This document shows, piece after piece, positions 756-58,774 of a stretch of 64,000 bases of DNA; positions within the stretch are counted from its first letter, which is position 1; each line of letters starts with the position of its first letter. The stretch comes from an uncultured Chloroflexia bacterium. GTDB taxonomy: Bacteria > Chloroflexota > Limnocylindria > Limnocylindrales > CSP1-4. The stretch lies in contig CAWEHL010000004.1 in assembly GCA_963808895.1 (NCBI GenBank), positions 559,972 to 623,971 of the forward strand. The letters are read 5' to 3'. The notes beneath the pieces were generated by a model that had not been told where the DNA came from, searched no databases, and was given only the letters and a program-made list of their open reading frames with translations. The position numbers and the translations under genes were made by a program.

Positions 756-1280
756 GTGACCACGACGGCCTTCACGGCCCTCGCCTCGGAAGCGTTCGCG
801 CGGCTGCACCGGACCGCACGGCTGATCCTCCGAAGCGACGATCGGGCGGCTGACGCAGTCCAGGACTCGCTCCTGGCCGCCTGGCTGCACATCCGCGCCG
901 TGCGCGACCCGGAGCGGTTCGACGCCTGGCTCAATCGGCTCCTGGTCAACGCCTGCTATCGGGAGGCGCGGCGGGTCAAGCGGCGCGGGGTCGTGGAGAT
1001 CCAGATGACGCTGCCCGACGCACGGGCACCCGGTGACGCGCAGGAGCTGACCGCCGTACGGGACCAGCTGGAGCGAGGCTTTCGTCGGCTGTCCGCCGAG
1101 CAGCGTGCCGTGCTCGTGGTCCACCACTACCTCGGGCTGCCGGATGCCGAGGCGGCCGCTGTCCTCGATATCGCGGTCGGCACCTTCAAGTCCCGGCTCC
1201 ATCGCGCCTCGACCGCTCTCCGGGCCGCCCTCGACGCCGACGACCGCCGACCGACCATCGCCGAGGAGTCCATCGCATGA
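756..1280 (+). CDS. ECF (sigma-70 family, group IV) RNA polymerase sigma factor
   Basis: region 2 (DSLLAAWLHIRAVRDPERFDAWLNRLLVNACYREARR) and region 4 (LSAEQRAVLVVHHYLGLPDAEAAAVLDIAVGTFKSRLHRA); GTG start; stop overlaps next start (ATGA). Confidence 0.9.
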   Translation: MTTTAFTALASEAFARLHRTARLILRSDDRAADAVQDSLLAAWLHIRAVRDPERFDAWLNRLLVNACYREARRVKRRGVVEIQMTLPDARAPGDAQELTAVRDQLERGFRRLSAEQRAVLVVHHYLGLPDAEAAAVLDIAVGTFKSRLHRASTALRAALDADDRRPTIAEESIA

Positions 1281-2551
1281 CCGCCCGCGACGACTTCGAT
1301 CGAACGCTCGCCGACTGGCTCGATGCTGAGGCGGTCTCGCCCGTCCCGCTCGGTGGACTCGACCAGGCGCTCGACGCCACGCGCCGCCGTTCGCCCCGTC
1401 CCGCGTGGTTGGCCCGCATCGGCAGTCACTGGATCGGCGGTACGGGGTCGAGCACAGGCCGCGCTGGCGCTGCGCATAGGTCCGAGCGGGTCGAGGGCGC
1501 TCATCTTGCTGGCCCTGTCGCCGCTATCCTGGGCGGCGCGCTCGCCGGAACGGTTTTGGTCGGCGGCGTCCTCGGTCCACGACCCAGCCCGTCGTTGGTC
1601 CCACATCGAGCCGTGGTCCCGCCACCGTCGTTGGTCCCACCTCGAGCATTGGTCCCATCACCGTCGCCGATCTCAACCCACCGCGTCGCTCGAAACGGCG
1701 CGATCGCGGTGACGAGGGAAGGTGCGATCGCCCTGATCGACCCGGTCACTGGCAAGACGGTGAAGACGATCCCGGTCGGCTCGGCAGAGGTGGGGGACCT
1801 CACATGGGCTCCCGATGGGCGGAGACTGGCGTTCACGGCGACCGGCGGGGTCTGGGTGATGGACGTGTCAGACGGGACGTCGGAGCAGATCCTGAGCTGC
1901 GGCGAGGGAGCCGATGGGTGCACGATCGCATGGTCGCCCGTGGGCTCGCGCATCGCGGTCGCCCACGGTGACACGCTCGAGCTGGTCGATCCCGACGGCA
2001 GCAACCGGGCGACGCTCTGGAGGCAGATCCACCCTGTCGGCAGAGCTGGGCTGTCGCAGCCGACCTGGTCACCCGACGGAAGCCGGATCGCCGTCAATGG
2101 GTGGATCGGCCAGGGAAGGGGTCTCTATACCATCGATCGGGACGGGTCCAATCTGACCCCCCTCCTCGGCCCGCTTCCGGGAATCGGAACGTACGACCCT
2201 GCCTGGTCGCCCGAAGGATCGACGATCGCGTACTTCGGGTCGACCGATATCCGGGTCTGCAGAGAGAATCGAGTTACCTCGACGACCACCTGTGATGACC
2301 AATGGCAGCTCCATGTCATGTCCCTCCGTCTGGACGGCTCGGAGCCACGCGAGCTGCACAAGGCGGGGATCTGTTATTGCATCGGGGGCGCCCCGAGCCT
2401 CACCTGGTCGCCGGACGGGACCAGCCTCGCGTTCGTCGGATTCGGAAGTGACACCTTTCCAGGCGGCCTCACCGTGATGAACGCTGATGGAACCGAGCTG
2501 CGCCAGGTGACGGAGGACGGCGGCGGTCCGGCCTGGCAGCCGGTTCCGTGA
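1277..2551 (+). CDS. putative anti-sigma factor: short cytoplasmic N-domain, one TM helix, Pro-rich linker, extracytoplasmic TolB-like beta-propeller
   Basis: translationally coupled to the ECF gene; TM LAGPVAAILGGALAGTVLVGGVL; repeated WSPDG/WAPDG propeller blades (APDGRRLAF, WSPVGSRIAV, WSPDGSRIAV, WSPEGSTIAY, WSPDGTSLAF). Confidence 0.8.
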   Translation: MTARDDFDRTLADWLDAEAVSPVPLGGLDQALDATRRRSPRPAWLARIGSHWIGGTGSSTGRAGAAHRSERVEGAHLAGPVAAILGGALAGTVLVGGVLGPRPSPSLVPHRAVVPPPSLVPPRALVPSPSPISTHRVARNGAIAVTREGAIALIDPVTGKTVKTIPVGSAEVGDLTWAPDGRRLAFTATGGVWVMDVSDGTSEQILSCGEGADGCTIAWSPVGSRIAVAHGDTLELVDPDGSNRATLWRQIHPVGRAGLSQPTWSPDGSRIAVNGWIGQGRGLYTIDRDGSNLTPLLGPLPGIGTYDPAWSPEGSTIAYFGSTDIRVCRENRVTSTTTCDDQWQLHVMSLRLDGSEPRELHKAGICYCIGGAPSLTWSPDGTSLAFVGFGSDTFPGGLTVMNADGTELRQVTEDGGGPAWQPVP

Positions 2552-2589
2552 GCTAGCTCCAGTTCGCTCTGCGCTTTCCCTCGGTCGCG

Positions 2590-2809
2590 CCACTCCGTGA
2601 CGTCAACCTCCCGGTCGGCACGGCACTGGCCGGCGCGTGGACCGACTGCGACATGTACATCGGTTCGGAGTTCCGGATCGACGTCTCGTCGGAGGCGGGT
2701 AACCGCTTCGACCAGAACGTGACCGGCTTCCGGGCAGAGGAGGAGTTCGGGTTCAACGCGACGCCGTATGTCGCGACCGGCAAGTTCGTGAAGATCCTCG
2801 GGCTGTAGT
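2590..2809 (+). pseudogene. 3' gene fragment, family X copy A (...RFDQNVTGFRAEEEFGFNATPYVATGKFVKILGL*), no start codon
   Basis: open frame begins right after a TAG; last ~100 nt about 92% identical to 20448-20546 (53 nt identical); parent gene not recognised. Confidence 0.4.
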
Positions 2810-3587: not shown

Positions 3588-3750
3588 GCCCTCGGTGTTG
3601 GCTCGTCGAACGCATGGAGGATGGTCGACTCGGGGGAACGTCCTCAAGGACCTGATCTCGACCTATCGCGACTGGACCCGCGTAGGCTGGTCCAAGGTGA
3701 AGGACCGGAGCTGGTACGAGCGCGAGGCCTGGCGTTTCGATCGGAGGTAA
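3588..3750 (+). pseudogene. remnant of ATP-dependent DNA ligase 3' end (ligase-tail copy 2)
   Basis: reads LNLVEPSVLARR...VLKDLISTYRDWTRVGWSKVKDRSWYEREAWRFDRR*; colinear with LSALVDPSVSLVEQMTDGRLEGIVLKDRTSTYRDGSRAGWTKVKDRSWYEREAWRFDRR of the ligase gene; internal frameshift; no start. Confidence 0.5.
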
Positions 3751-4635: not shown

Positions 4636-4888
4636 CTAGCCCGAAACCACGTCGAAGGGCCTTAGCTTCCACGCCCAGCCACTCCGTGACCGCCGCCCTC
4701 GTCGCCTCTAGCGCCGAGCGTCGGTCGTTCGCGTCTATCGACAGCCACGGGTAGCCGAGGACGTACCAGCGACCGTCCTGGGCCTGCATAGCGCGGTACA
4801 CCGGCCTCTCACCGCGCCCGATCGTGCGGATGGCAACCTGGACGCAGGACGAACTGACGCGGATCGGGGATGCGGAGGAGATCGACAT
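4559..4888 (-). CDS. small conserved hypothetical protein, paralog family S copy 1
   Basis: AIRTIGRGERPVYRAMQAQDGRWYVLGYPWLSIDANDRRSALEATRAAV; a ~130-nt stretch is >90% identical to 18360-18500; C-terminus differs from copy 2 by a 1-nt indel, and an alternative frame ends at 4636 abutting the hydrolase stop. Confidence 0.45.
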   Translation of the reverse strand: MSISSASPIRVSSSCVQVAIRTIGRGERPVYRAMQAQDGRWYVLGYPWLSIDANDRRSALEATRAAVTEWLGVEAKALRRGFGLVMNPMPQGRVQMRGSRKRSGQHACR

Positions 4889-12244: not shown

Positions 12245-12932
12245 CGCGAGGGACCTCGGGGCGGGCTACGTCGGGACCGACATGCTGTTGATGGGCTTGA
12301 CCCGCACCGAGGGTGCGGCCGCGGAGGTACTTGCCGCGGCCGGCGCGACAGAGGCCGCTGTCGCGGCGATCGTCACACCGACGAATCGTGACGGAGCGAT
12401 GCCGGCAGACGGAGGCGAATGCCGGCGCATCCGCGCCTGAGTCCCGCGGCGCAAGAAGCACCGGGTCGCGCGGAAGAGGATGGGCATCGCTCTCGGCGTC
12501 GCCGACGGATCGATCCGCCTACTACTCGCCCTCACCTACGACCGCGACGGTATTCACAGCTCGCTCCTACGCCGCGTAGGCATCGACCGTGGGGTCCTCG
12601 TGCAGGCGCTCGCTGATAGCGGCGTACGGGTCCCCCCTAGACCACCCCCGCCCGACCGGACCCCGCACTCCGTATGGGTGACCCTCCCGGACCATCAGGC
12701 GCGCGTCGTGGCGGCCGAACTGGCGCGCCGCTCGACCGAGGACATGGACTATTGGTTCGACTCGTGGGGCGGCGCCAGCTGGGGATACGGCGGCGTCGAG
12801 GACCGGCCCGGTGAGGCACGGATCTACGGCGAGGAGCGGATCGACCTGCCCACTCTGGTGCCGGAAATCCTTGCCGCAAGTGGCTACCCGCCGCCGCCAG
12901 ACGATTCCTCGGAGACCCACCGAGAGGTCTAG
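12180..12932 (+). pseudogene. Clp N-terminal (Clp_N) double-repeat domain protein interrupted by an in-frame TGA at 12438-12440
   Basis: repeat 1 LLMGLTRTEGAAAEVLAAAGATEAAV; stop; repeat 2 LLLALTYDRDGIHSSLLRRVGIDRGVLVQALADSG in the same frame. Confidence 0.45.
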
Positions 12933-13002
12933 GCCCGATGATCGCCCGGTTTCAAGCCCTGCAGTCCATCCACTCTCGTTGGCGACGACGCCATGGGCGC
13001 CC

Positions 13003-13550
13003 CTACACACGTGCGAGCGCCGGAGGTCTCTTCGCGCCCTCGATCAAGAGCCATACAAAGGGGATCAATAGACTGAACACGCCGAGATTCGGAATCGTGA
13101 TTGCAAGGAAGGCGCCAGCCGCGCTGATCAGGTGGTACGCGTAAGGATCGGAATAAGTGCCCAGCCGATAAGCCGCGTCCTGCCCTCGGTGCCCAGGAGC
13201 AAGAGACCGATGAACCAGACGTCGATCCCGAGTACGAGTAGATGTTCCGGCCAATTCCCGAGCAAACCGAACGCGATGTCGTGCAGCGTGGCGTTCTCGG
13301 GAAAGATACTGCTGAGCGCCTGAAGCAGGAAGACCACGGCAAAAAGTCCTGCCGACACGGCCCCTATCACGTCGATCCAACGGGGCAGTCCGAAGTCAAA
13401 GACCGCCCTCACGAACAGCAGCATGCCGACGCCAAGGACGAGATGGACAACGATGTCGGGCGCGCGCTCCCCGAATGCTTGGGACGCCACCGCCAGTGGC
13501 AACGACAGCAGCATGGTGATGGCGGACGAAACCGCCCAGATGGATCTCAT
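13003..13550 (-). CDS. hypothetical integral membrane protein, apparent frameshift near 13170
   Basis: strongly hydrophobic throughout; frame A ends ...LLLGTEGRTRLIGWALIPILTRTT*, frame B continues ...YSDPYAYHLISAAGAFLAITIPNLGVFSLLIPFVWLLIEGAKRP. Confidence 0.4.
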
Positions 13551-13996
13551 GTCATACCTCGATGGCGCCGATCCCCGAAACTTGCGGCAGACCTTACCTT
13601 CGCGGCCGAAGCACCGAAAATGAGCGCAACACCCTATTGGGATGTCCGGCCGGGGCCTAGGTTCGCCGTCAGGAACCTTCGGGCCACGCGGAGGTTGGAC
13701 CGTCGACCGGGAGTCGGCGGCGACTTCGCCGTCGCGACTGGGATCTCACTCCTTGCGTCGAGCATGCGGCCCGCGGTTTGTGTCCGCCCTACCAGCGGGC
13801 GGGCTCGCGATCTGGTGGACTCACTGGCTGTTCCATTTCGTCGAGCGCCAATCGCTCCCACTCCGACCGCAGCTCCTGCTCAATCAATCGGAGCCGGAGC
13901 CATTCGGCGGTCCAGGGCAGGGCGTCATCAAAGGCGCGCTTGGCGTCGTACCACGCGGCGTACGCCTCGGATGGCGCGGCGTCGGCATCGTTGTTG

Positions 13997-14194
13997 CTAT
14001 CCCCTCGACCGGCGCGGGTCGGGCCGACCGATCCGGACTCGGCCGCCCCGGCCCTTTACCACGAGCTCGCCGCCACCGTTCGCCAGTTGCCGTCGAGCTG
14101 CTTGCTCGGCTTCCTGTTGCGTCCTGAACGTTTGCTGCTCGCCCGTCACCTGCCAACCGCCGCCGCTCTTTGGTCCGACCGTCACTCTCGCCAT
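13997..14194 (-). CDS. DUF2188 family small protein
   Basis: MARVTVGPKSGGGWQVTGEQQTFRTQQEAEQAARRQLANGGGELVVKGRGGRVRIGRPDP matches the DUF2188 pattern (GGW.V....F.T..EA...A..LA....ELV.HG.dG.IR); aggaag SD. Confidence 0.6.
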   Translation of the reverse strand: MARVTVGPKSGGGWQVTGEQQTFRTQQEAEQAARRQLANGGGELVVKGRGGRVRIGRPDPRRSRG

Positions 14195-14203
14195 GGTCGC
14201 TTC

Positions 14204-14425
14204 CTATTCGCTTTCGTCGGACGACTCCGGGTCGATGCTTTCCGACTCGTCGATTGCGCCGCGTTGTGCTGGGGGGCGATCACCCTTCAGCCGCCGATCG
14301 CGCTCTACGTCGCCTTGCGCCTCGTCAGCCTCGCGCCATCGTGGAGAGTCCCAATCCACGTCGGACGGGTCCGACGTGCCTCGGTCGTCTGGGCCGTCAG
14401 CCGAACTCCGGCGACCTTCGTCCAT
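14204..14425 (-). CDS. small highly acidic hypothetical protein
   Basis: 73-aa D/E/S-rich ORF 9 nt upstream of DUF2188, divergent from the ligase gene; could be chance. Confidence 0.25.
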   Translation of the reverse strand: MDEGRRSSADGPDDRGTSDPSDVDWDSPRWREADEAQGDVERDRRLKGDRPPAQRGAIDESESIDPESSDESE

Positions 14426-15109
14426 GGCATGTCGCCTCCGAGTAGATGTCTACGCGCCGATATCATGGGCGGATGTCCCGGCGGTCGTCCCACAACTCGT
14501 CGCCAACGACGGAACAAGGGCATTGCGACAGGCGATCGCCGATCCGGATCGCTTCGCCTGCGAGCCGAACGTTCGATGGCGTCCGCGGCCTCGTCATCTA
14601 CCAGCCGGAACACGTTCTCGAGATGCGCAACCGGCGCGGCGAGAAGCGCGATTGGTTGCGCGGAGACCCGTTCGAGAGAGGTCTCCGACGCCTAGCCGAG
14701 CGACTCCCGAACCTCTGGGAAGGGACCGTCCTCGACGGAGAGCTGACCGCCGGACGGTTCGAAGGAACCATGTCGGCGCTGCTCGGGTCCAAACGGTTCC
14801 GACCATCGCTGCGGTTCGTCGTGTTCGACGTGCCGATGTTGCTCGGCGCGGACCTCCGCGGGCCTGCCCTGGCAGGACCGGCGTGAACGGCTCGAACTCC
14901 TCGCCCGTGCCTTCGACGTGCCGTTGGAACTCAGCGCGCTTGTTGATCCGTCCGTGTCGCTCGTCGAGCAGATGACGGATGGTCGGCTCGAGGGCATCGT
15001 TCTCAAGGACCGGACGTCGACCTACCGCGACGGATCGCGGGCAGGGTGGACCAAGGTCAAGGACCGATCGTGGTACGAGCGCGAGGCGTGGCGCTTCGAC
15101 CGCCGCTAA
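14424..15109 (+). pseudogene. minimal ATP-dependent DNA ligase (nucleotidyltransferase domain only, ~215 aa) disrupted by two +1 frameshifts
   Basis: frame 0 MACRLRVDVYAPISWADVPAVVPQLVANDGTRALRQAIADPDRFACEP; one extra c near 14588 shifts into motif I (EP-K-FDGVRGLVIYQ), then VLDGELTAG (motif IV); second extra c near 14865 shifts into LPWQDRRERLELL...EGIVLKDRTSTYRDGSRAGWTKVKDRSWYEREAWRFDRR* (motif V); no OB domain. Confidence 0.7.
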
Positions 15110-15222
15110 CAAGGGGTGGGAGTACCCTGTACGGGCGTCCCGTCCGAGTGCCTCCCGCACGCGACGATTAGCGGGTGCCCCGAGGCCACTCCCCATTGCC
15201 CAATGATGGCAAGACGAACGGT

Positions 15223-17029: not shown

Positions 17030-17039
17030 CGCTAAGCTG

Positions 17040-17328: not shown

Positions 17329-17353
17329 CGTTTGCCGCTCCCGTGGTCCGGGG

Positions 17354-45278: not shown

Positions 45279-45884
45279 TCAGCCCGCGTTCCCGTAGGTC
45301 GGCCGGCCGGCCGCTCTGTACGTTTGGAGCATCACGCCCGACGCGGTCGACCGAGAGTCGACCAGCTCCAGCGCGTGTGCTTGACCGCGTTCGGGGAACA
45401 GCCGCAGGCCATCGCCGACGATGACCGGATAGATCCGCAGGTTCAGCTCGTCGACGAGGTCGCGCTCAAGCAGCCAGCGGAGCAACTCGCCGCTGCCGTG
45501 GACCTGGAGCTCGCGTCCGGGCTGGGCCTTGAGCTCGCGGACCGCCGCCTCGAGGTCACCGGAGATGACGCGGGTGTTCTGCCACGTTGGATCCTTCAGC
45601 GTCGTCGAGGGCACGTACTTGGGCAGCACGTTGATCCCATGTGAGACGGGGTCGCCCGCGTCGTGGAGCGGCCAGTACGGTTCCCAGATCTCCCAGGTCT
45701 TGCGCCCGAGCAGGAACGCGTCGGCGCGCTCGAACCATCCCGTCAGGAACTGCCAGCCCTCGTCGTCGCCATAGGCCGCCGTCCATCCGCCGCGGTCGAA
45801 CCCGTCGCGTCGATCCTCGTCGGGGCCGCCCGGGCCCTGATAGACGCCGTCGAGGGTGAGCATCATCGATGCGGTGAGCTTCAT
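45279..45884 (-). CDS. dihydrofolate reductase family protein (RibD C-terminal domain type)
   Basis: MKLTASMMLTLDGVYQGPGGP...GRKTWEIW...ELQVHGSGELLRWLLERDLVDELNLRIYPVIVGDG. Confidence 0.85.
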   Translation of the reverse strand: MKLTASMMLTLDGVYQGPGGPDEDRRDGFDRGGWTAAYGDDEGWQFLTGWFERADAFLLGRKTWEIWEPYWPLHDAGDPVSHGINVLPKYVPSTTLKDPTWQNTRVISGDLEAAVRELKAQPGRELQVHGSGELLRWLLERDLVDELNLRIYPVIVGDGLRLFPERGQAHALELVDSRSTASGVMLQTYRAAGRPTYGNAG

Positions 45885-48622: not shown

Positions 48623-48803
48623 GGCCCAAGCCTCCCAAGCGACTCGAGGACGCGACGACCCCTGGTCACCGACCCTCAGGGGGGCATCGCGGCTCGTCCT
48701 CGCGTTAGCGGCAACATCCCTGATGCATGCCGGGAACGGATGGATGACCCGTGCCCGTCAGTATCTGTGAGCGCGGCACACGCCGCGCTGATGGAAGGGC
48801 ACC

Positions 48804-49364
48804 GTGGATCAGCAAGCACTCGTCGAACGCGCGAGCCAGGGCGATCATGAGGCCTTCGGTTTGCTCGTCGGCGCGCGCCTCGCGCGACTGGACACGGCCG
48901 CCCGCTTGATCCTCCGGGACGCGGAGCTCGCGCGCGACGCGGTCCAGGAGGCGACGCTCCGGGCTTGGCGAAACCTGCGCGGGTTGCGCGACCCGAGCAG
49001 GTTCGATGCCTGGTTGCATCGACTCACCGTCAATGCCTGTCTCGATATCGCCCGGCAGCGTCGCAGCCGGGTCATCGAGATCGAGCTCACGCCCCTCCAT
49101 GACGCGCCGGTGCAGGACGCTTCGTCCCAGGTCACCGACGCGATGTACATCGAACGCATGCTCGCCGTGCTCGACCCCTCGCAACGAGCGGTGGTCGTGC
49201 TGCATTACTACCTTGACCTTTCCCTGCCCGAGACGGCAGGCGCCCTGGGCATCCCGATCGGGACCGCGAAGTCTCGTCTGAACCGGGCGCTCGAGGCGAT
49301 GCGGATCAAGGTCGCCGATGACGAATTGAGTATCTCGTCGGCCCCGAGGGAGCGTTTCGCATGA
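48804..49364 (+). CDS. ECF RNA polymerase sigma factor (paralog of 756-1280)
   Basis: LVERASQGDHEAFGLLV, AVQEATLRAWRNLRGLRDPSRFDAWLHRLTVNACLD, region 4 VVLHYYLDLSLPETAGALGIPIGTAKSRLNRA. Confidence 0.9.
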   Translation: MDQQALVERASQGDHEAFGLLVGARLARLDTAARLILRDAELARDAVQEATLRAWRNLRGLRDPSRFDAWLHRLTVNACLDIARQRRSRVIEIELTPLHDAPVQDASSQVTDAMYIERMLAVLDPSQRAVVVLHYYLDLSLPETAGALGIPIGTAKSRLNRALEAMRIKVADDELSISSAPRERFA

Positions 49365-50647
49365 ACCGCTCGGATCCGCAGCTCCGCTCCATAACGGCCG
49401 ATCGGCTTGGCGCCGCCCTCCATGAGGTCGGTGGCATGGCGCGGCCCGACTATCTCGATGACATCGTCACGCGGGCGCAACACACGCGACAGCGGCCCCC
49501 GTGGACGTTCCTCGAAAGGTGGCTTCCCATGTCCGTCGCGGTTCGACGCGAGGGGATCCCGCGCGTCGCCGTCCTGTTCGCACTACTCGTTCTTCTCCTG
49601 GTGGCCGCATTCGCGACGACCGTCGTGCTGACCGGAGCGCCGACGCGTCTACCCACTCCGTTCGTCGTCACGAACGGCGAGATCGCGTTCGTCGCCGGGA
49701 ACGACATCGTGGAGGTCCAGCCAGACGGCTCGGGCCGGCGCGTGCTCGTCCCTGGATCCCCGCAGCAGAGCGGCGTCTCGTTCTCTCCGGATGGGCGTCG
49801 CATGGTGTACTGGCGACAGAACGGGGCACTCCAGGACCTGGTCGTGGCCGACGCAGACGGGTCCCGGCCCACCACGATCTCGACGGGCGCGATCGAGCCG
49901 ACTGGGTCCGCGATCGTCTGGTCTCCCGATGGGACCCGGGTCGCGTACTCGAGCCGGACCGTACCGTCGACTACGCCAACCTCGTGCCCCGGTTTCGGGA
50001 CGCAGAACGGCGATTTCTGCTCGTCCAGGATCTTCGTCGCGCCGGTCGACGGGTCCGGCGCCCATCAGGTCGGCGATGCGACGCTCGATGCTCGGAGCCC
50101 GGCGTGGTCGCCGGATGGTTCGACGATCGCATTCGGCGGCGGGAACGCCATGCCTGGGCAGAGCCTGCGGCTCTACCTGATGAACGCCGATGGCAGCAAC
50201 GTTCGACAGGTCAGCGCCGTCCGTGGCACGGACTGGGCCTTCATGCGGACCGACTGGTCGCACGACGGATCCAAGATCGCCACCCAGGCGAGTGCCGCCA
50301 ACAACCTCAACCAGTGGGATATCTGGGTCATCGATCCGAAGACCGGGTCGGCGACGGACGTCGCCACGCAGCCCGGCGCCGACGACGTCTTCCCGATGTG
50401 GGCGTCGGACCGGGACGCGCTGGCATGGGCCGGGAACGGCCTCTACCTCCAGGAGCCTGGTGGGCAGCCGGTTGATGTCCAGCCGAGCGGCACCCTTCCG
50501 TACTGGTCACCTGATGGCAAGCTCATCGCGTCGATCACGAACGACGACAAGCTCGAGGTCAGCGACGTCCACGGCATCGTCGTGTTCACAGCCGACGGGG
50601 CGACCGACAACAAGTTGAGCTGGCAGACCATCCGGTCCGGCAGCTGA
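49361..50647 (+). CDS. putative anti-sigma factor with TM helix and extracytoplasmic TolB-like beta-propeller (paralog of 1277-2551)
   Basis: ATGA coupling; TM VAVLFALLVLLLVAAFATTVVL; blades FSPDGRRMVY, WSPDGTRVAY, WSPDGSTIAF, WSHDGSKIAT, WSPDGKLIAS. Confidence 0.8.
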   Translation: MNRSDPQLRSITADRLGAALHEVGGMARPDYLDDIVTRAQHTRQRPPWTFLERWLPMSVAVRREGIPRVAVLFALLVLLLVAAFATTVVLTGAPTRLPTPFVVTNGEIAFVAGNDIVEVQPDGSGRRVLVPGSPQQSGVSFSPDGRRMVYWRQNGALQDLVVADADGSRPTTISTGAIEPTGSAIVWSPDGTRVAYSSRTVPSTTPTSCPGFGTQNGDFCSSRIFVAPVDGSGAHQVGDATLDARSPAWSPDGSTIAFGGGNAMPGQSLRLYLMNADGSNVRQVSAVRGTDWAFMRTDWSHDGSKIATQASAANNLNQWDIWVIDPKTGSATDVATQPGADDVFPMWASDRDALAWAGNGLYLQEPGGQPVDVQPSGTLPYWSPDGKLIASITNDDKLEVSDVHGIVVFTADGATDNKLSWQTIRSGS

Positions 50648-50709: not shown

Positions 50710-51399
50710 TCAGGCGTCCCCTGACTCAAGGTTCGGGCGTATCCCGGGACGCACCATCCCCGACTCATAGGCGAGCACGACGAGCTGCGCCCGATCGCGG
50801 AGGTCGAGCTTCAACAGCAGATGCGATACGTGCGTCTTCACCGTCGGCTCGGCGAGCACCAAGCGCTCGGAGACTTCGCGGTTGGACAGGCCCTGGGCCA
50901 CGAGCTGCAGCACCTCGCGCTCGCGCTCCGTGAGCTGGCTCACGAGCTGATCGCGACGAGCATCGGCTGACGGTGAGGCCTGCACGAAGCGCTCGAGGAG
51001 GCGACGGGTCACGGAAGGGGCGATCAGCGCCTCCCCTGACGCCACCACACGGATCGCGGTCACGAAGTCGGCGGGCGTCACGTCCTTCAGCAGGAACCCG
51101 CTCGCTCCGGCGCGCAGGGCCTCGACGACGTGCTCGTCCGTGTCGAAGGTCGTCAGGACAAGGACACGCGGCGCCGAGTCCGACCCTGTGAGTCGGCGGG
51201 TCGCCTCGACGCCGTCCATCACCGGCATCCGGATGTCCATCACGACGACATCCGGCCGGAGCCGGGCGACAGAGTCGACCGCCTCTCGGCCGTTGGCTGC
51301 CTCCCCGACCACCTCGATCCCCTCCTCGACCGCGAGGATCATCCGGAAGCCCGTCCGGACCAGCTGCTGGTCATCGACGAGCATGACGCGGATCGTCAT
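50710..51399 (-). CDS. two-component response regulator, NarL/FixJ (LuxR) family
   Basis: REC IRVMLVDDQQLVRTG...DVVVMDIRMPVMDG; LuxR HTH LTEREREVLQLVAQGLSNREVSERLVLAEPTVKTHVSHLLLKL. Confidence 0.9.
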   Translation of the reverse strand: MTIRVMLVDDQQLVRTGFRMILAVEEGIEVVGEAANGREAVDSVARLRPDVVVMDIRMPVMDGVEATRRLTGSDSAPRVLVLTTFDTDEHVVEALRAGASGFLLKDVTPADFVTAIRVVASGEALIAPSVTRRLLERFVQASPSADARRDQLVSQLTEREREVLQLVAQGLSNREVSERLVLAEPTVKTHVSHLLLKLDLRDRAQLVVLAYESGMVRPGIRPNLESGDA

Positions 51400-52619
51400 G
51401 CCGCAGACGCCGCGCCATCGATCGGGAGTCGCGCCTTCACGAGGAAGCCGGCCGCCGTCGGGTGGGCGAGGAAGGTCCCGCGGAGCATCGCCGCCCGCTC
51501 GCGCATCCCGATCAGGCCGCGGCCCTCGTGCGGCGGCTCGACCGCGGTCGGAGACCCCGGCCCACGCTCGTCCTCGACGGCGATCTCGAGCGCGTCGGCC
51601 AGGTAGCGCACCTGAACGCGGGCCCGGCCCCCACGGGCGTGCTTCAGCGAATTCGTGAGCGCTTCCTGGACGATCCGGTATGCGGAGACCTCGAGCCCAG
51701 GGTCCAGCGGTCGCGCCTCGCCCTCGACGATGAGCTCGACCGCGAGGCCCGCCGACCGAAGTTGCTCGAGTAGCTCCTCGAGGCGCTCGAGCCCCGGCGC
51801 GGGCTCGGAGGCATCTACCTCGCCGAGGATCCCGATCATGCGGCGCATGTCCGTCAGGGCGAGGCGCCCGGTCGCCCCGATCGCGTCGAGCGCCATACGT
51901 GCCTCATCGGGACGCGTATCGATGACCCGAGACGCCCCACCGGCCTGCACCACCATCACGGTCACGTGATGGGTCACGACGTCGTGGAGCTCACGGGCGA
52001 TCCGCGCGCGCTCGCTCCGGACAGCGCGCTCCGTGCGCTCGTCGCGCTCACGCTCGAGCCGCAGCGCGCGCTCCTCGAGCGCACCCGCGTACAGGCGACG
52101 GATCCGTGCCGCGTCGCCAAGGAGCCACGCCACAACGAAGATCAGCTCCGTCTGGACGAGCGACACGAGGACGGCCGCGATCCCTGCCCGAGCGACGAAG
52201 GCGATCGCCAGGATGCCACCCGCAAGCGCGGTCGCGGCCACCGACCGCCGTCGCTCGACACGCTCGCCGACGGTGTAGACGGCCACCAGGATGCCGAGCC
52301 CAGCCTGCAGCGCCTCGCCCTCGGGAAGGAGCGTGATCTGGACGACGGTCGCACCCACGATCACCGCCAGGACCGCGAGCGGGAACCGGCGGCGGACGAT
52401 CAGCGGCAGGCTCTCGAGCAGCAGCAGCGCCAGGCCGACCGCGCTCGGTTGGCTAGCGGCAGGCCCACCGAAGTTGGCGAGGAGAGAAAGGGCCGCAAGG
52501 AAGAGGGCGATGGCGGAGTCGACGACGAGCGGGCGGGCGGACAGGGCCTCGCGCACGTGCTGGAGCGTCGTCCGCCCGGCGGGCGGGGCTGCGGCGGTCC
52601 GGGCTGCGTGGGGTTCCAT
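51396..52619 (-). CDS. sensor histidine kinase (HisKA_3 / HATPase_c), partner of the LuxR regulator
   Basis: TM sensor; ERARIARELHDVVTHHVTVMVVQAG (H-box); ...VEDERGPGSP...GRGLIGMRERAAMLRG; start set at internal ATG 52619 (track ORF extends to 52790). Confidence 0.8.
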   Translation of the reverse strand: MEPHAARTAAAPPAGRTTLQHVREALSARPLVVDSAIALFLAALSLLANFGGPAASQPSAVGLALLLLESLPLIVRRRFPLAVLAVIVGATVVQITLLPEGEALQAGLGILVAVYTVGERVERRRSVAATALAGGILAIAFVARAGIAAVLVSLVQTELIFVVAWLLGDAARIRRLYAGALEERALRLERERDERTERAVRSERARIARELHDVVTHHVTVMVVQAGGASRVIDTRPDEARMALDAIGATGRLALTDMRRMIGILGEVDASEPAPGLERLEELLEQLRSAGLAVELIVEGEARPLDPGLEVSAYRIVQEALTNSLKHARGGRARVQVRYLADALEIAVEDERGPGSPTAVEPPHEGRGLIGMRERAAMLRGTFLAHPTAAGFLVKARLPIDGAASAA

Positions 52620-52841
52620 GGTCGTGCGCGAACCGTACCGGCCGTGCGCGCGCCGCGCATCCATCTCGAGGATGGTCCCGACCGATACCGCGGTATCGGT
52701 CCCGGCCTGGTAAGCGCGCCGACTCGCTCGGGCAGTTCGAGACGCGCGATGGACGACGCAGGAAGGCTCCCGGCCGGAGGGTATGGCCATCGCGACTCAC
52801 CCGAGTCGCAGCCCTAACGGAACCAGAAAGGTCCCAACACC

Positions 52842-53723
52842 ATGAGCTCGTTCGCCAAGCGCCATCCGATCACCACATTCCTCGCGATCCTGTACAGCGC
52901 CACTGCGGCGATCTTCGTGATCCCGCTGCTGTCGAGCGCCGGCATCGGCGTCATCGACCTCGAATTGCCCGGCATCGGGCCCTTCATCGTGCTATCGGCG
53001 CTGTCGCTCGTCGGTAGCGCCTTCGTCGCCACCGCCCTGGCCGATGGCCGGCCCGGCGTCCGGGAGCTGCGCCGGCGCGTGTTCCACTTCCGCGTCAACC
53101 CGATCTGGTACGTCGTCGCTCTCGTCGCGCTGCCCGGCGCGGCGCTCGCCACCGCCTTCGTCATGAGCGGTGTCGCCCCTCTCGTAGCCCTCGCGTCGAA
53201 CCCGGCGATCATCATCGAGGTGGCCCTCGGCGCCGTCGTCGCCTTCGCCCTCGTCAACTGGTGGGAAGAGGCCGCTTGGACCGGTTTCGCCCTCGAGCGC
53301 CTGCAGGGAGCCCTTGGCCCCATCCGCGCCAGCATCGTCACGACCTGGATGCAGGCGACCCTTCACCTGCCGCTCGTGTTCATCGCCGGTGGTGTGACCG
53401 TCGGCCGTGTGGCTCCCGAGGCCATCCCCTTCTACCTCGTCGCGCTGTACATCCTGCCGATCCCGGTCCGGATGACCCTCACCTGGCTGTACAACAGGAG
53501 CGGTCATAGCGTGCCGATCGTCGGCCTGTATCACGCGGGCCTCGGCGTGGCCTCCGGGGTCGCCTTCCTCCCAGTCCTCGCGCCGAGCGTCGATCCGGTG
53601 TGGGTGTACGCGGGTTTCGCCGTCCTCGCTGCGGTCGTGCTGGTCGCGACCCGCGGCCGACTGGGCTTCCCGGCCGAGCCGCGGCCGCTCACAGGCGGGA
53701 AGGAGGTGGCGGTCGCGGCCTGA
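52842..53723 (+). CDS. CPBP (CAAX protease-like) family intramembrane protein
   Basis: 8 TM helices; NWWEEAAWTGF (EExxxRG-like), later His-containing motifs; assignment moderate. Confidence 0.55.
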   Translation: MSSFAKRHPITTFLAILYSATAAIFVIPLLSSAGIGVIDLELPGIGPFIVLSALSLVGSAFVATALADGRPGVRELRRRVFHFRVNPIWYVVALVALPGAALATAFVMSGVAPLVALASNPAIIIEVALGAVVAFALVNWWEEAAWTGFALERLQGALGPIRASIVTTWMQATLHLPLVFIAGGVTVGRVAPEAIPFYLVALYILPIPVRMTLTWLYNRSGHSVPIVGLYHAGLGVASGVAFLPVLAPSVDPVWVYAGFAVLAAVVLVATRGRLGFPAEPRPLTGGKEVAVAA

Positions 53724-53904
53724 CGACCATCGTCCACTCCTAGCCGGGCGGTCATCGACCGCCCGGCTCTTCTTTGCGTCCGGCTCGCCGGAGTTTGCGG
53801 TATCCCGATCTCGGTCTCGATGCGGACGGCGCAGACTCCAGGGTCACCGACACACTCGAAGGCACGGATCCGCGTCAGGTCCGCGGGGAAGGAGGAACCA
53901 GCCC

Positions 53905-54528
53905 ATGAGATTGACGGCCACCGCACAGGTCTCCGTCGATGGGGTGATGCAGGGACCCGGCGTGAACCCGATCGAGGTCGATGTGGGCGGCTTCGAGCGT
54001 CGGGGGTGGGCGCACTTCGACGACGAGGCCGGGGCGGTGATGGACGGCATCTTCCAGCGCGCCGGCGCGTTCCTGTTCGGCAGAAGAACCTACGAGCACT
54101 TCGCCGAGACCTGGGGAACGTGGGACGATCCGGGCGACAGCCCGATCTGGACGGCGTTGAACGCGCTGCCAAAACACGTCGTCTCCGCGTCGCTAACAGG
54201 GCCGCGCTGGGCGGGCACGACCGTGATCGCCGACGACGTCGCGGCTGAGGTCCGCGACCTTAAGGCGAAGGAGGGAGGCGAATTACAGGTACACGGCAGC
54301 GGCGTCCTGTTCCGCTGGCTCCTCGACAACGACCTCGTCGACGAGATGACCCTGTTCATGTTTCCTGTGCTCGTCGGTCAGGGCACGCGGCTATTCGCGA
54401 CCAGTGGCCCGGACGCGATGCTCGAGCTGGTCTCATCGCGGGCCACGTCCAGTGGGATCACGATCCAGGTGTACCGGCCCAGCGGCCGGCCGCAGTATCC
54501 CAGCGCCGAGCCCACGCAGAGCTCCTGA
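53905..54528 (+). CDS. dihydrofolate reductase family protein (paralog of 45279-45884)
   Basis: MRLTATAQVSVDGVMQGPG...GRRTYEHF...ELQVHGSGVLFRWLLDNDLVDEMTLFMFPVLVGQG. Confidence 0.85.
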   Translation: MRLTATAQVSVDGVMQGPGVNPIEVDVGGFERRGWAHFDDEAGAVMDGIFQRAGAFLFGRRTYEHFAETWGTWDDPGDSPIWTALNALPKHVVSASLTGPRWAGTTVIADDVAAEVRDLKAKEGGELQVHGSGVLFRWLLDNDLVDEMTLFMFPVLVGQGTRLFATSGPDAMLELVSSRATSSGITIQVYRPSGRPQYPSAEPTQSS

Positions 54529-54692
54529 CTGGCGACCGGATCTTCAGATGACGCACGTGGCGTCGTCTCCCGGCCCGTGCAGTCGCCCTCCCACGGTTCG
54601 ACCGTCTGGGCGAGGGCCTATCGGAGAGGCCGCGAACAAAGAAGGCCCGCTCGAGCGGGCCTTCTCCGTTGAACGTGCCGCTTGACCGATGG

Positions 54693-56075
54693 TCAATGGC
54701 CGACCGGTAGGAAGTAGTGCGCGTTCGCGTACCGGGCGACGTTGTTGCCCAGCACCTGGGCCGCAACATCCGAGCTCCGATAGTGGAGGCCAGCCCATAT
54801 GCGTGCCTCGATGAGCTCGGCGAGTGGCTGTGAGAACGTGTCGAACGTGCGGACCATGGACGGGGGCGGCGTTGGGAACTGCGTCGAGAAGCTGGTGATC
54901 GAGAACCTGCCTGGCGTATCGCCGAAGAACAGCCGCAGTGCCGAGACTTCGGAGGCATCGAGGCAGTTGTGCCCTGAGACCCATTCGGGATACGGCGCGC
55001 TGATGAGCGGCGCCCACGTCGCATCGGCCGCCGTGTCCGCGTTGCCATCCTCCGACGCTCGTGCGATCGCGTTCCACGGCCGCCAGAAGTCGAAGTAGTA
55101 CTTGTCGTTCCAGCAGTTGATCGCCGCGTCCGCCCCACCCATATTCAGCAACGCGAGGAGTCTCGCGCTGTCGGCGGCGTTGACATCGTTCCGCGCGATG
55201 AGCTGCCGGGCGACGTCGTTCCAGCTGGTGCCCGGGGCACTCTGCCACCATCTGGCGATGAAGGTCTGATCGTCGGTCCGCGTCGAGCCGGTAGCCCGGC
55301 CCAGGGCCTTGACCTCGTTGAATTGAGTCGCGTAATCCGCACTGTCGAGTGCGGGCGGTGGTGCACTACGGAACTGCGACGAGCTCTTGAGCAAGAAGGG
55401 CTTCACGCCGCCGACCCAGGGGGTCGGATCGAGGATCGGCTGCCCCATCGGATTGAGCACCGGCGACCAGTGGCCGGGGCGGGAGTCCGGCATCCACTGG
55501 GACGGTCCGAACCGTCCGTCGTGCGCCCGCGCGCGGAGCATGGCCTTGGCCGCCGCGTGTCCGATCGCGATGCCCTGACGCTTGTACGTGCCACCGTGAA
55601 TCGCCCCGAGCGATGCCGCGTACTCGTTGGAGAGCGATGTCAGGAGTCCGTCCCGACCCGGGAAGGGAGCTCGCTCGGGTGCCGACGAGACGAGTGCCGA
55701 GAGCACGTCGTACGCCGCTGTTGCCGCGGCCGCGTCGGCCGACGCCTTCGCGCTCGCACGCTTCTTGAGGAGATACGGCTGATGTTGCTTCGGGCCGATC
55801 GCATTGACGGCGTCGTACACCGCGCCCTGCACCATGCCCAGATTGATCTGCATCGCGGGTGCCGCACCGCCGTTCGGTGGCGGGAACGCCATCAGCGTGG
55901 TCACCGCCACCTGATTCCAGTGAGACACCTCACTACCGTCGGTCGCCGGGGCTCCGGCTGATGCGCTGAGGGCGCCAGACCCGCCCAGGAGCGCCAGTAC
56001 CGCCAACGGGATCAAGGCGACAGATCGCCACCGCACAGTCGTTCTGGTCTTCTCGACTCCGCTTCGCTGCGTCAT
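54693..56075 (-). CDS. secreted vanadium-dependent haloperoxidase / PAP2-superfamily protein
   Basis: signal peptide; ...YPEWVSGHNCLDASEVSALRLFFG...WAGLHYRSSD (PAP2/haloperoxidase active-site motifs). Confidence 0.75.
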   Translation of the reverse strand: MTQRSGVEKTRTTVRWRSVALIPLAVLALLGGSGALSASAGAPATDGSEVSHWNQVAVTTLMAFPPPNGGAAPAMQINLGMVQGAVYDAVNAIGPKQHQPYLLKKRASAKASADAAAATAAYDVLSALVSSAPERAPFPGRDGLLTSLSNEYAASLGAIHGGTYKRQGIAIGHAAAKAMLRARAHDGRFGPSQWMPDSRPGHWSPVLNPMGQPILDPTPWVGGVKPFLLKSSSQFRSAPPPALDSADYATQFNEVKALGRATGSTRTDDQTFIARWWQSAPGTSWNDVARQLIARNDVNAADSARLLALLNMGGADAAINCWNDKYYFDFWRPWNAIARASEDGNADTAADATWAPLISAPYPEWVSGHNCLDASEVSALRLFFGDTPGRFSITSFSTQFPTPPPSMVRTFDTFSQPLAELIEARIWAGLHYRSSDVAAQVLGNNVARYANAHYFLPVGH

Positions 56076-56382
56076 CGCGTGCCTCCACTAACTGCCGAGC
56101 CAGCCGTGCCTAGGTATTCCTAACAGCCGTGTGTCATGGCAGCGTCGGGCGCGGGACAAGACCGTCGGCGGTAGGGCGCCAGGTGAGGCCCCCATCGAAC
56201 GTCCGGCTGCGGGCAAATTCGGTGCGCGGTGATCGGCCGCTTCGATCGAAGCGACATCGGAAGCCGGCGATAGCGGAAGCGCCCGGACGCCCGCTGACTC
56301 ACCCGAAAGCCCGACGCCGGGTATCTACCGTGTGAGGCCGGATCCAGACGGATCGGGCCCGCGGGTACTAGCGGAGGCTGGG

Positions 56383-56913
56383 ATGACGGTCCAGGCACTG
56401 CGTCGGGGACGACCCGAGGTGCTGGCCGACCTGCTCGACCGGTACGGCCGGGAGATGCAGGCCGTGGCCTACCTCGTCGTTCGCGACCGGGCCGCGGCCG
56501 AGGACATCGTCGCCGACAGCCTGCTGGCGGCGCTCGACCATGGTCGCAGTCTCCGTGACGACGATGCCCTGCGACCGTGGCTGCTCCGGATCGCCACCAA
56601 CAAGGCGCTTCGATATCGCCAGCGGGCCGCGCGCATCGTCGAACTCGAGGTCGTCGATGGCGCCGCCGCCGAGCACATCGGACCGACCGCCGACGACTCG
56701 TTGGCGCTCTGGCAAGCCGTCCGCGACCTGCCGCCTCGGATGCGTGCCGCGATCGGCCTGCGCTATTACCTCGACCTGCCGGTCGAGACGGTGGCCGAGG
56801 TGCTCGATGTCAGCCCGAACACCATCAAGACCCAGCTGAAGTCGGCGCTCGCGCACCTGCGGACAGCACTTGCCGACGAACCGATGCCCGTCGCGGAGGT
56901 GCGACATGCGTGA
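56383..56913 (+). CDS. ECF RNA polymerase sigma factor (third in window)
   Basis: ggaggctgg SD then ATG 56383; region 2 AVAYLVVRDRAAAEDIVADSLLAAL...PWLLRIATNKALRYRQR; region 4 AAIGLRYYLDLPVETVAEVLDVSPNTIKTQLKSA. Confidence 0.85.
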   Translation: MTVQALRRGRPEVLADLLDRYGREMQAVAYLVVRDRAAAEDIVADSLLAALDHGRSLRDDDALRPWLLRIATNKALRYRQRAARIVELEVVDGAAAEHIGPTADDSLALWQAVRDLPPRMRAAIGLRYYLDLPVETVAEVLDVSPNTIKTQLKSALAHLRTALADEPMPVAEVRHA

Positions 56914-58774
56914 GCTCGACGACGCCGCCCTCGAAGGTCGCCTCCGCGAGGTCCTGAAAGAGCGTCTGGGAGCGCTGCGGCTGGACCTTACCGTCGAAGC
57001 TCTTGATCAGCGCAGGGAGGCCAAGGGGGCTGCCCGACGATCAGGCCGGGGTCGAGGCATCACACTTTTTGCGGCCGCGGCCCTGTTGCTCGTCGGCGGG
57101 GCGTTGGCAGCGGGCTCCGGACTCCTGCGGCTGCCCTCGGTCGTCCCGCCCGTGCCGGACCCATCGGTCGTTGCAGTCGCTACGGCATCGCCAGATGCGA
57201 CGTCGCCCAGCCCGAGCGTCTCCGCTGAACCATCGGCCACACCGATCCCTCCCGCGGGTCCGGGAGGGGCGTGGATCGCCACCGGGACGATGGGCACGCC
57301 TCGCTCTGGAAGCGAAGCACTGCGGCTCCTCGATGGCCGGGTGCTCGTAGTGGGTGGCAGCGGGGCCGAATCCGACCGGCCCACCGCGGAGTTGTACGAC
57401 CCGGCCAGCGGGACATGGTCAACCACCGGAAGCATGCTCAAGGGCATGGCCGGCTTCCCGCTCACGCTGCTGCGGGACGGCCGGGTGATCGTCGGGGATA
57501 CGGACGACATCTCGGCAGATGTCGTGATCATCGGCGCCGAGGTGTACGACCCCGCGACCGGAGTTTGGTCGTCGGCGGGGAAGGTGTGCACCTATGAGGG
57601 GTATGAGTTCAGCCGGACCGCCACGCTCCTCCGCGACGGCCAGGTCCTCTTGGTATCCCAGTGCGGCGCACAGCTGTACGAACCGGACAGCGGAACCTGG
57701 TCCGGGGCAGGGAAGATGATCACACCGCGCCACGGCCACACGGCCACGTTGCTGCCCGACGGCAAGGTGCTCGTGGCAGGCGGGTCGGACGGAGGCGCTC
57801 GCGCCGGTCGCGGAGGCGCGCTGGGCTCGGCCGAGCTGTACGATCCCGACACGGGGTCCTGGACCGCCGTCGGAAAGCCGATCGACACTCGTCGGAAATG
57901 CGGATCCGGCGACACTACCGGCGACAATACGGGCGGCTGCGAGAGTGGGTATGCCTGGGCCACCCTGCTACCGGACGGAACCCTGCTCTTGGTGCCGCGC
58001 GGCGGTTCCGAGTTCAACGCCGAAACCTTCGACCCAGCGACCAGAACCTGGACGGAACTCGCTGGGCCAACCGAGTGCGGCACCCCAAGGGCATTGTTGT
58101 CGGATGGTACCGTGCTGATAACAGACCTCCTGGATCCCTGTACCGATCTCTATGGGTCCTGTACGGCTGCGGCGCTGTATGACCCGCGCACCGGGTCGTC
58201 GACGACCGCTTCGAGCATGCCCCGGTGCCGCAGCTCGTTCACGCTCCTGCTCGATGGCACGATCCTCGTGGCAGGTGGCCGCGACTGTAACGACGACGGC
58301 GTGTGTGGCGCGACGCGCGCCGCGGAGCTGTACATCCCTGCCGGCGTGTCGCCGCCACCGTTGCCAGCCTTCCCGAGCCCGACTCCGCCGGTCTTCCCGA
58401 GCCCGACCCCTGTCCCGAGCCCGACCGCGAGACCGACGCTTTTCCCGCCCGCGGCGGGTCCCGTCCCACCAAACCCGCGGAGCTGGATCGTCACGGTCGA
58501 CAACAACAGCTCAAAGCCGGCGGCGCTGTTCGTGGCCGAGGAGGACGGGCATGGGGGGTTGCGGCTCGTCGGGTCCGCGACGCCCAACGTGGTCCCAGGC
58601 GGCGCCACCGTCAACGTGACCTTCCGCTTCCCTGCCAAAGGGGGTCCCGACGGATGGATCTACGTGAACGCGCGACCGGGCGAGGGAGGATCGTTGGTCC
58701 ACGCGGCCGACATCGGCATCCCAGGCAAGATCGTGATCACAGCGGACGGCCAAGCGGGCTGGTTGAGTCCCTAG
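56906..58774 (+). CDS. putative anti-sigma factor with TM helix, Kelch-repeat beta-propeller, Pro-rich linker and C-terminal beta-sandwich domain
   Basis: ATG 56906 overlaps sigma stop by 8 nt; TM ITLFAAAALLLVGGALAAG; repeated ELYDPASGTWS / EVYDPATGVWS / QLYEPDSGTWS / ELYDPDTGSWT / ETFDPATRTWT / ALYDPRTGS Kelch blades. Confidence 0.75.
   Translation: MRELDDAALEGRLREVLKERLGALRLDLTVEALDQRREAKGAARRSGRGRGITLFAAAALLLVGGALAAGSGLLRLPSVVPPVPDPSVVAVATASPDATSPSPSVSAEPSATPIPPAGPGGAWIATGTMGTPRSGSEALRLLDGRVLVVGGSGAESDRPTAELYDPASGTWSTTGSMLKGMAGFPLTLLRDGRVIVGDTDDISADVVIIGAEVYDPATGVWSSAGKVCTYEGYEFSRTATLLRDGQVLLVSQCGAQLYEPDSGTWSGAGKMITPRHGHTATLLPDGKVLVAGGSDGGARAGRGGALGSAELYDPDTGSWTAVGKPIDTRRKCGSGDTTGDNTGGCESGYAWATLLPDGTLLLVPRGGSEFNAETFDPATRTWTELAGPTECGTPRALLSDGTVLITDLLDPCTDLYGSCTAAALYDPRTGSSTTASSMPRCRSSFTLLLDGTILVAGGRDCNDDGVCGATRAAELYIPAGVSPPPLPAFPSPTPPVFPSPTPVPSPTARPTLFPPAAGPVPPNPRSWIVTVDNNSSKPAALFVAEEDGHGGLRLVGSATPNVVPGGATVNVTFRFPAKGGPDGWIYVNARPGEGGSLVHAADIGIPGKIVITADGQAGWLSP

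Follow-up and report, generated by a model that had tools for sequence, protein, structure and literature searches.

Overlapping genes for ECF sigma factors and membrane-anchored beta-propeller proteins form putative sigma/anti-sigma operons of two types in an uncultured Chloroflexota bacterium

Sigma factors of the extracytoplasmic function (ECF) type form a major route of signalling in bacteria, but few of the anti-sigma partners have been characterised, and the majority are confined to a single ECF group. Putative anti-sigma factors accompany 114 of 157 ECF groups; they are usually encoded at position +1, usually have one transmembrane (TM) helix, are mostly group-specific and mostly lack a Pfam match, and a +1, translationally coupled gene is what typically marks a single-pass anti-sigma factor (PMC7826278). 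Class I anti-sigma domains average 101 +/- 33 aa and have four helices; the class II factor CnrY has two helices only, of which the first binds sigma4 and the second sigma2 (PMC7406223). In ECF57 sigma factors, WD40-like repeats occur as fused C-terminal extensions (PMC8999054). Here we analyse a 64-kb stretch of contig CAWEHL010000004.1 (68.3% G+C), from an uncultured Chloroflexia bacterium of the CSP1-4 lineage, which is referred to below as the window. It contains three pairs of genes, each composed of an ECF sigma factor gene (sig1, sig2 and sig3) and a gene for a membrane protein with a large extracytoplasmic propeller (par1, par2 and par3). We consider it probable that each pair is a self-contained ECF sigma/membrane anti-sigma signalling operon. 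The pairs had been located in a first-pass annotation made from the sequence alone, and domain and open reading frame (ORF) searches agree with these positions, on the + strand (Table 1).

Pfam and NCBIfam domain searches of the 64-kb window detected exactly three sigma genes, all on the + strand. According to the Pfam search, their products consist of Sigma70_r2 and Sigma70_r4_2 only, and scores of 54.1, 68.8 and 65.3 bits against TIGR02937 (cut-off 42.9) place sig1, sig2 and sig3 among the ECF (group 4) sigma-70 factors. The best curated model for all three is TIGR02983, the actinobacterial SigE family, but the scores of 106.7, 111.2 and 96.3 bits fall short of its cut-off of 141.55 bits, and none of the three is a member. 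The nearest solved sigma factors (SigW, Mycobacterium tuberculosis SigE, SigL and RpoE) are distant, matching at only ~E 1e-14. Sig1 and Sig2 are 47.5% identical; Sig3 shares 29-35% identity with either.

Table 1. Coordinates of the sigma/partner pairs, their upstream elements and neighbouring genes in the window
Feature	Position	Strand	Description
sig1, ECF sigma gene	722-1280	+	Ancestral ATG 722; intact remainder from GTG 756 to 1280, 174 aa
par1	1277-2551	+	424 aa: divergent N-module aa 1-56, TM helix aa 81-99, Pro-rich linker, PD40 propeller
sig2, ECF sigma gene	48804-49364	+	186 aa, length equal to close homologues
par2	49361-50647	+	428 aa: N-module aa 1-58, TM helix, PD40/TolB-like propeller aa 102-428
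sig3, ECF sigma gene	56383-56913	+	176 aa from ATG 56383, GGAGG upstream; homologues also 176 aa
par3	56906-58774	+	622 aa: N-segment aa 1-51, TM aa 52-74, Pro-rich linker, Kelch ~aa 123-480
ECF-type promoter, pair 1	650-679	+	GGAAC (650-654), N17, ACTCATGA
ECF-type promoter, pair 2	48733-48763	+	GGAAC, N17, CCGTCAGTA; 71 nt upstream of sig2 start
Conserved upstream block, pair 3	56289-56348	+	GCTGACTCACCC...CCGGGTATCTACC...GTGAGGCCGGATCCAG; from alignment with L082 and L083; unique in window
Pair 1 unit	584-2593	+	2,014-bp block with promoter, sig1 and par1; 93% identical to L084-L086 (blastn)
LuxR-type response regulator	50710-51399	-	
Histidine kinase	51396-52790	-	
tRNA-Arg(CCT) gene	58828-58903	-	54 nt downstream of par3 stop codon

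In each pair the partner gene overlaps the end of the sigma gene. The first-pass annotation had the start codon of every partner overlapping the sigma stop codon, which holds for pairs 1 and 2, where the overlap is 4 nt of the ATGA type (CGCATGACC at 1277 and CGCATGAAC at 49361). The overlap in pair 3 is 8 nt long (ATGCGTGA), but the par3 ATG (56906-56908) and the sig3 stop codon (56911-56913) are themselves separate; a GGAGG sequence lies 7 nt upstream of this ATG. Conservation of the arrangement was followed in 80 related loci, sampled at one genome per species and taken mostly from Chloroflexota soil metagenome-assembled genomes (MAGs) labelled Chloroflexia, Ca. Limnocylindrales or CSP1-4. 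Hidden Markov models (HMMs) for the sigma factors, for the N-terminal module shared by par1 and par2 (the N-module, described below) and for the propeller were built and run on all six-frame ORFs of these loci. Fifty ORFs carry the N-module, and an automatic test found an ECF sigma domain upstream of 47 of them, on the same strand and ending -1 to +264 nt away; of the other three, one lies at the edge of its locus (L013), one is due to an artefact of coordinates (L032) and one is a fusion (L008). Tandem arrays of pairs are frequent: L013 has three to four pairs, L026 has three, and L004, L036 and L075 have two each. The pair-1 orthologue, which retains the 4-nt overlap, sits just behind another sigma-PD40 pair. 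For the Kelch-type pair 3, the comparison comprised three homologue contigs, and in all three a 176-aa ECF sigma gene lies upstream with the same 8-nt overlap. On one JGI contig, a sigma-Kelch pair, the sigma-PD40 pair with the par2 orthologue and the sigma-Kelch pair with the par3 orthologue follow one another directly, and the contig has a fourth sigma gene as well. Since this synteny is kept in dozens of independent genomes, the adjacency of sigma and propeller genes is not due to chance.

The partners are single-pass membrane proteins with propeller ectodomains, as the first-pass annotation had described them. Each has a single hydrophobic helix (residues 81-99, 71-89 and 52-70 in par1, par2 and par3, respectively). 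Two of the ectodomains belong to the PD40 family (par1, E 2e-13, 50.3 bits; par2, E 1e-17, 63.6 bits; cut-off 20.9) and the third to the Kelch family (par3, Kelch_1, E 1e-21, 76.2 bits; cut-off 20.1). A Pro-rich linker between helix and propeller, reported for all three, is clear in par1 and par3, but in par2 it is reduced to ~12 residues with 3 Pro. Structure prediction was carried out with AlphaFold2 (AF2) and read out as the predicted local distance difference test score (pLDDT) only. For par2, whose full-length homologues number in the thousands in metagenomes, a 61-sequence alignment gave a model with a mean pLDDT of 85.6, in which the TM helix (68-91) is confident and the propeller (102-428) mostly exceeds 90. 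In a Foldseek search of this model against the PDB, TolB came first (E 1e-14) and the propellers of S9 peptidases next; after normalisation by target, a 7-bladed designed propeller matched best (TMt 0.77). The first-pass annotation had called for such a prediction and had described the propeller as TolB-like, and the model bears that description out. The par2 propeller also carries a conserved Cys209/Cys220 pair. 'TolB-like' describes the propeller fold only, because par1 and par2 score 45.4 and 74.2 bits against the TolB equivalog TIGR02800, far under its cut-off of 343.15. The genes around the window pairs are unrelated to tol-pal. Unlike TolB, with which they and the S9 peptidase N-terminal propellers share the PD40-repeat fold, par1 and par2 have no TolB N-terminal alpha/beta domain, are anchored in the membrane and are encoded beside a sigma gene. 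In par3 the Kelch region is followed by a second Pro-rich linker and then by a conserved domain of ~100 aa (aa 525-622; window 58478-58771), which has no match in Pfam or NCBIfam and a mean identity of 72% across the family.

The cytoplasmic N-terminal segments of all three partners are rich in Arg and free of Cys on direct reading of the sequence, so that the HxxxCxxC zinc anti-sigma motif is absent from each of them, in agreement with the first-pass annotation. In pairs 1 and 2 this segment is the N-module, ~55 cytoplasmic residues with two helices and a RQRPAWTFPERWLPM motif; in the par2 model the helices span residues 13-23 and 31-40, and the motif reads RQRPPWTFLERWLPM. The consensus of the module is M-x(3-5)-(F/L)(E/D)RxLPxxLx(D/E)LAxxxxPDYxDDxLxxTxRTRQRP(A/G)WTFPERWLPM, and ~10-15 residues, often with PRxPWR, separate it from the TM helix. 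In the alignment (par2 numbering) W48 is invariant and R43, Q44, R45, P46, E52, R53, W54 and M57 are nearly so. A Tat signal was considered as an alternative reading of the RQRP motif and was ruled out, as the consensus has no twin arginine and the hydrophobic helix lies ~20 residues away. The par1 segment matches the module HMM at E 3e-6; the par3 segment gives no match. The family of par3 instead begins with M(P/R)ELDDAALERRLRGVLKEHLGALPLDLTVDALDRRREAKGVARRxGRGRG, directly followed by the TM helix, and within this family the N-segment is at least as conserved as the ectodomain (mean pairwise identity of 69% versus 57%). Homology between the two kinds of segment was examined with hhalign and not adopted (probability 7.5%). 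Because the N-segments of pairs 1/2 and pair 3 are not detectably related, and because of the 29-35% identity of Sig3, the three pairs are assigned on sequence to two families, one with pairs 1 and 2 and the other with pair 3. Thus, the proposal of an expanded ECF-propeller family stands as regards the expansion, which is evident from the 50 module ORFs and the tandem arrays, but not as regards a single family.

A profile search of 1.84 billion representative proteins retrieved the N-module in 1,489 clusters at E <= 1e-3, including 388 at E <= 1e-10. Among the best 150 of the 1,489 clusters the module stands at the extreme N-terminus in almost all, and in the internal cases the preceding part is a frameshifted sigma gene. 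Of 66 full-length module representatives, 52 have PD40 repeats, six have NHL repeats and several match other propeller models. Since it is fused to PD40, NHL and other propellers, the N-module behaves like a cytoplasmic adaptor that is portable among propeller ectodomains, and it always adjoins an ECF sigma gene. In the 80-locus scan, module-less PD40 proteins of other phyla mostly have no adjoining sigma gene. A module-less PD40 protein is found right behind an ECF sigma gene in two loci (L058, 1231-3096; L064, 3051-4939), which come from a MAG of Limnocylindria and a MAG of Actinomycetota; the pairing of sigma factors with propellers may thus extend past the N-module family.

Neither Pfam nor NCBIfam contains a match to the N-module, even when hits up to E = 10 are admitted. 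Its profile gave nothing significant against all PDB sequences; CnrY did not appear at E <= 10, and the sole anti-sigma factor listed was NepR (E = 1.1). In architecture the module resembles class II. In CnrY of Cupriavidus metallidurans, which acts with CnrH, a cytoplasmic domain of ~50 aa with two predicted helices leads directly into one TM helix, its gene adjoins the ECF sigma gene and there is no zinc motif; NepR is comparably short. The same layout, a short two-helix cytoplasmic segment right before one TM helix, is predicted for par2 and for P0508, a natural read-through fusion of a sigma factor with its partner that was modelled from a clean block alignment. The window modules differ from CnrY in their additional, invariant W-rich motif (RQRPAWTFPERWLPM), in having no detected sequence similarity to it, and in the ectodomain, which is a large propeller in place of the short periplasmic tail with which CnrY works together with CnrX. 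With the class I factors (RseA, RsiW, RskA and the RslA/ChrR-type zinc-binding anti-sigma domains) the partners share the +1 gene, translational coupling, a single TM helix with the N-terminus inside, an extracytoplasmic sensor and an autoregulated sigma operon; regulated proteolysis is the usual release in class I. They differ from class I in size, with ~55 aa and two AF2-predicted helices compared with ~101 aa and four helices, in the absence of HxxxCxxC and in having no match to a Pfam or NCBIfam anti-sigma model at E <= 10. The ECF57 sigma factors of Planctomycetes likewise tie an ECF sigma factor functionally to a beta-propeller, in many copies per genome (PMC8999054, PMC7826278), but there the propeller is fused to the sigma factor and here it is on a separate membrane protein. 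We infer from this combination of features that the N-segments bind their sigma factors. The pairs would then be two putative lineage-specific types, expanded in Ca. Limnocylindria-like Chloroflexota, with short N-segments that are class II-like in architecture but fall into no established class.

Two of the sampled loci contain in-frame read-through fusions of a sigma factor with a module/PD40 partner, P0508 (L007, 3359-5263) and P0512 (L008, 3302-5158). The other members of their clusters are unfused, which leaves each of them a singleton, and both are probably products of indels in long-read MAGs, though they may be rare cases of genuine one-component fusion. Three further fusions (P0132, P0374 and P0407) were dropped as AF2 targets, being derived from frameshifts with a garbled helix 1 or sigma2. 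In par2 alone, the module helices reach a pLDDT of 50-63 and the block means of helices and W-motif are 39-63, which is low confidence. In P0508 the module helices are longer (198-215 and 223-232) with a pLDDT of 76-83, and the TM helix spans 263-286.

Conserved promoter elements are found specifically upstream of the sigma genes. The module family has the element (G/T)GAAC-N17-CGCCATAC, located ~74 nt before the start codon of the sigma gene. Its CGCCATA part occurs in 28 of 52 sigma-upstream regions, compared with 0 of 52 on the opposite strand. The full motif has 30 matches in 650 kb of loci when both strands are counted; 25 of these sit 40-130 nt upstream of a sigma start, and one more precedes a frameshifted sigma gene. 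In the window, the sig1 and sig2 promoters share the layout GGAAC-N17-(C/A)(G/C)TCA, about 70-105 nt upstream of the sigma genes, and these variants have relatives in L024, L028, L011 and L015. The sig1 promoter is invariant among the window, L084 and L086, and the sequence farther upstream diverges. The conserved block in front of pair 3 is, to judge from the alignment, presumed to be the promoter and 5' leader of that pair. A shared promoter motif, for which the first-pass annotation had suggested a search, is therefore present as a GGAAC-N17 element in pairs 1 and 2, but pair 3 has a block of its own. A window-wide promoter scan returned only the sigma genes' own promoters and chance-level matches. 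As the own operon is the only target visible in the window, the promoters point to positive autoregulation by each sigma factor, which is classical for ECF systems. One GGAAC-N17-CGTCA match (58940-58966) lies ~95 nt upstream of an operon of a glutaredoxin-like gene (59061-59360) and a DsbD_TM-CcdA gene (59357-60181); given that the number of matches in the window is at chance level, it may be a coincidence and not a regulon member.

Taken as a signalling operon, each pair would work as follows. The short cytoplasmic N-segment of the partner would tether the co-translated sigma factor to the membrane, by means of the two-helix module and the RQRPAWTFPERWLPM motif after it in pairs 1 and 2, and of a distinct, conserved segment of 50 residues in pair 3. 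The input domain would be the extracytoplasmic propeller, of the PD40/TolB-like or the Kelch type. An envelope or ligand signal perceived there would lead to release of the sigma factor, most likely via regulated proteolysis of the single-pass partner, and the freed sigma factor would transcribe its own operon from the ECF-type promoter, plus targets outside the window.

Several observations weigh against this interpretation. Searches of PDB, Pfam and NCBIfam linked the N-segments by sequence to none of the solved or curated anti-sigma domains. The W-rich motif is the most conserved part of the module, and it stays below 50 pLDDT in both AF2 models (residues 236-260 in P0508). The higher pLDDT of the module helices in P0508 than in par2 would fit their folding against the sigma factor, but this rise is uncontrolled, since the proteins and the alignments differ. 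No protease, regulon member or signal has been identified, and sig1 is frameshifted by an extra C at ~766 (a 1-nt insertion), with the same ATG 722 retained. Instead of inhibitors, the partners could be co-transcribed outputs, that is, surface propellers under sigma control, or positive co-factors, and the conserved N-segment would then serve membrane targeting, turnover or another cytoplasmic partner. The lack of detectable homology to known anti-sigma domains speaks for such a role, as does the failure of AF2 to place the membrane-adjacent W-motif confidently against the sigma factor; moreover, no promoter target was found apart from the operon itself, which makes the partner one output of the sigma factor at least. 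However, a plain output gene would need neither strict one-to-one translational coupling nor tandem co-duplication with the sigma gene, the module is portable across ectodomains yet always found beside a sigma gene, and the layout is the one that typifies single-pass anti-sigma factors (PMC7826278). We consequently regard an output or co-factor role as unlikely. An absence of any functional link, with the sigma and propeller genes adjacent by chance or as mere operon fellows, draws on nothing more than the abundance of PD40 and Kelch proteins in these genomes. It is contradicted by the position of a sigma gene directly upstream of module-bearing proteins across many MAGs, by the conservation of the 4-nt and 8-nt overlaps, and by a 2.0-kb block of exactly promoter and both genes that moves as a unit. 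Chance adjacency, which the first-pass annotation had named, along with N-segments lacking a predicted sigma-binding interface, as fatal to its proposal, is also at odds with the synteny, with 47 of the 50 module ORFs passing automatically and the other three explained, and we give it next to no weight. At the other extreme, the N-module may be an undescribed structural class of ECF anti-sigma domain, a portable adaptor for propeller sensors (PD40, NHL) expanded by tandem duplication in soil Chloroflexota, in which the W-motif would be a second membrane-proximal contact or a degradation/release switch. This extension of the anti-sigma interpretation is tentative, and we hold it to be rather unlikely.

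The 2.0-kb block is pair 1, which the first-pass annotation had suspected to be a moved cassette. The suspicion gains support from the flanks, which on both sides are unrelated to those in the three related contigs L084-L086 (blastn); no terminal repeats or mobility genes were found at the block boundaries. Since the sharply bounded block contains exactly the promoter and both genes between unrelated flanks, its sequence supports pair 1 being a self-contained unit that occurs in different contexts. The copy in the window may be non-functional. Position 756, given as the sig1 start in the first-pass annotation, does begin a 174-aa ORF, but this ORF is the remnant of a 185-aa ORF from ATG 722; all relatives with at least 90% identity are 185 aa long and begin with MERDLVLRARNGDHEAF. 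The insertion takes the first 14 codons out of frame. In par1, which is 87% identical to its orthologue, three 1-nt deletions at ~1460-1520 recode ~19 aa right before the TM helix, after which the frame is restored. Together with the crowding of the region with gene fragments and repeats, these lesions suggest a pseudogenised remnant in place of a working module, unless the indels are assembly errors. On the other hand, the three deletions total -3 and leave the ORF open, the promoter is intact, GTG 756 has an AGGA 4 nt upstream, and the sigma2 match of the 174-aa protein is still complete by Pfam (positions 8-70 of 71). We judge a pseudogenised remnant and a working module to be evenly balanced.

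The flanks of pair 1 in the window consist of gene fragments; the one at 1-189 is the last part of a repeat-domain protein. Four direct copies, 81-90% identical, are present of a 68-nt 'ligase tail' repeat (268-335, 3681-3748, 15040-15107 and 17676-17743), which encodes ...GW(S/T)K(A/V)KDRSWYEREAWRFDRR-stop. A frameshifted set of ORFs resembling an ATP-dependent DNA ligase (14446-15110) terminates in the copy at 15040, and the remaining three look like orphan tails. The fragment at 2707-2804, 98 nt long, shares 94% identity with 20442-20539 (repeat D4). More generally, positions 1-23000 are rich in fragments and repeats, among them D2 (4671-4840 versus 18359-18528) and D5 (18760 versus 22465), and dense, clean coding sequence begins at ~23 kb. 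A codon-position G+C test found few confident genes at ~12900-18300 and, more generally, throughout 1-23000.

Pairs 2 and 3 stand 5.7 kb apart in the window. The intervening stretch (50710-56075) holds, besides the response regulator and histidine kinase genes of Table 1, genes for an Rce1-like protease, a RibD_C protein and a 460-aa protein that matches no family. Only ~330 nt separate the orthologues of these two pairs on a related JGI contig, so the genes between pairs 2 and 3 in the window look like an insertion or rearrangement. An inverted repeat of 237 nt with 70% identity (45396-45632 and 54160-54396) has its arms in the RibD_C gene (53905-54528) and in a - strand gene (45279-45884); the arms are probably two paralogues on opposite strands.

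The system itself is of a known kind, as a putative lineage-specific form of the usual sigma/anti-sigma switch that is common among soil Chloroflexota; what is new in detail is the anti-sigma-like module, its association with propellers and the promoter. In the literature on propeller (WD40, PD40) anti-sigma partners and on Limnocylindria sigma factors, we found no description of the N-module or of PD40/Kelch anti-sigma factors, and the main text of the ECF classification makes no mention of Chloroflexi, PD40, WD40 or Kelch (PMC7826278). One paper goes no further than to record high numbers of sigma factors in soil CSP1-4. No current model is overturned by the present data. The compact N-module, unannotated so far, marks more than 1,000 sigma-partner pairs in a lineage that is abundant in soil but uncultured (Ca. 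Limnocylindria/CSP1-4), and our analysis ties it to propeller ectodomains and supplies the cognate promoter motif. This would improve the annotation of proteins presently labelled 'Tol biopolymer transport system component' or 'hypothetical', would permit heterologous use of the pairs as orthogonal sigma/anti-sigma/promoter sets, and would open a route to what the extracellular propellers sense.

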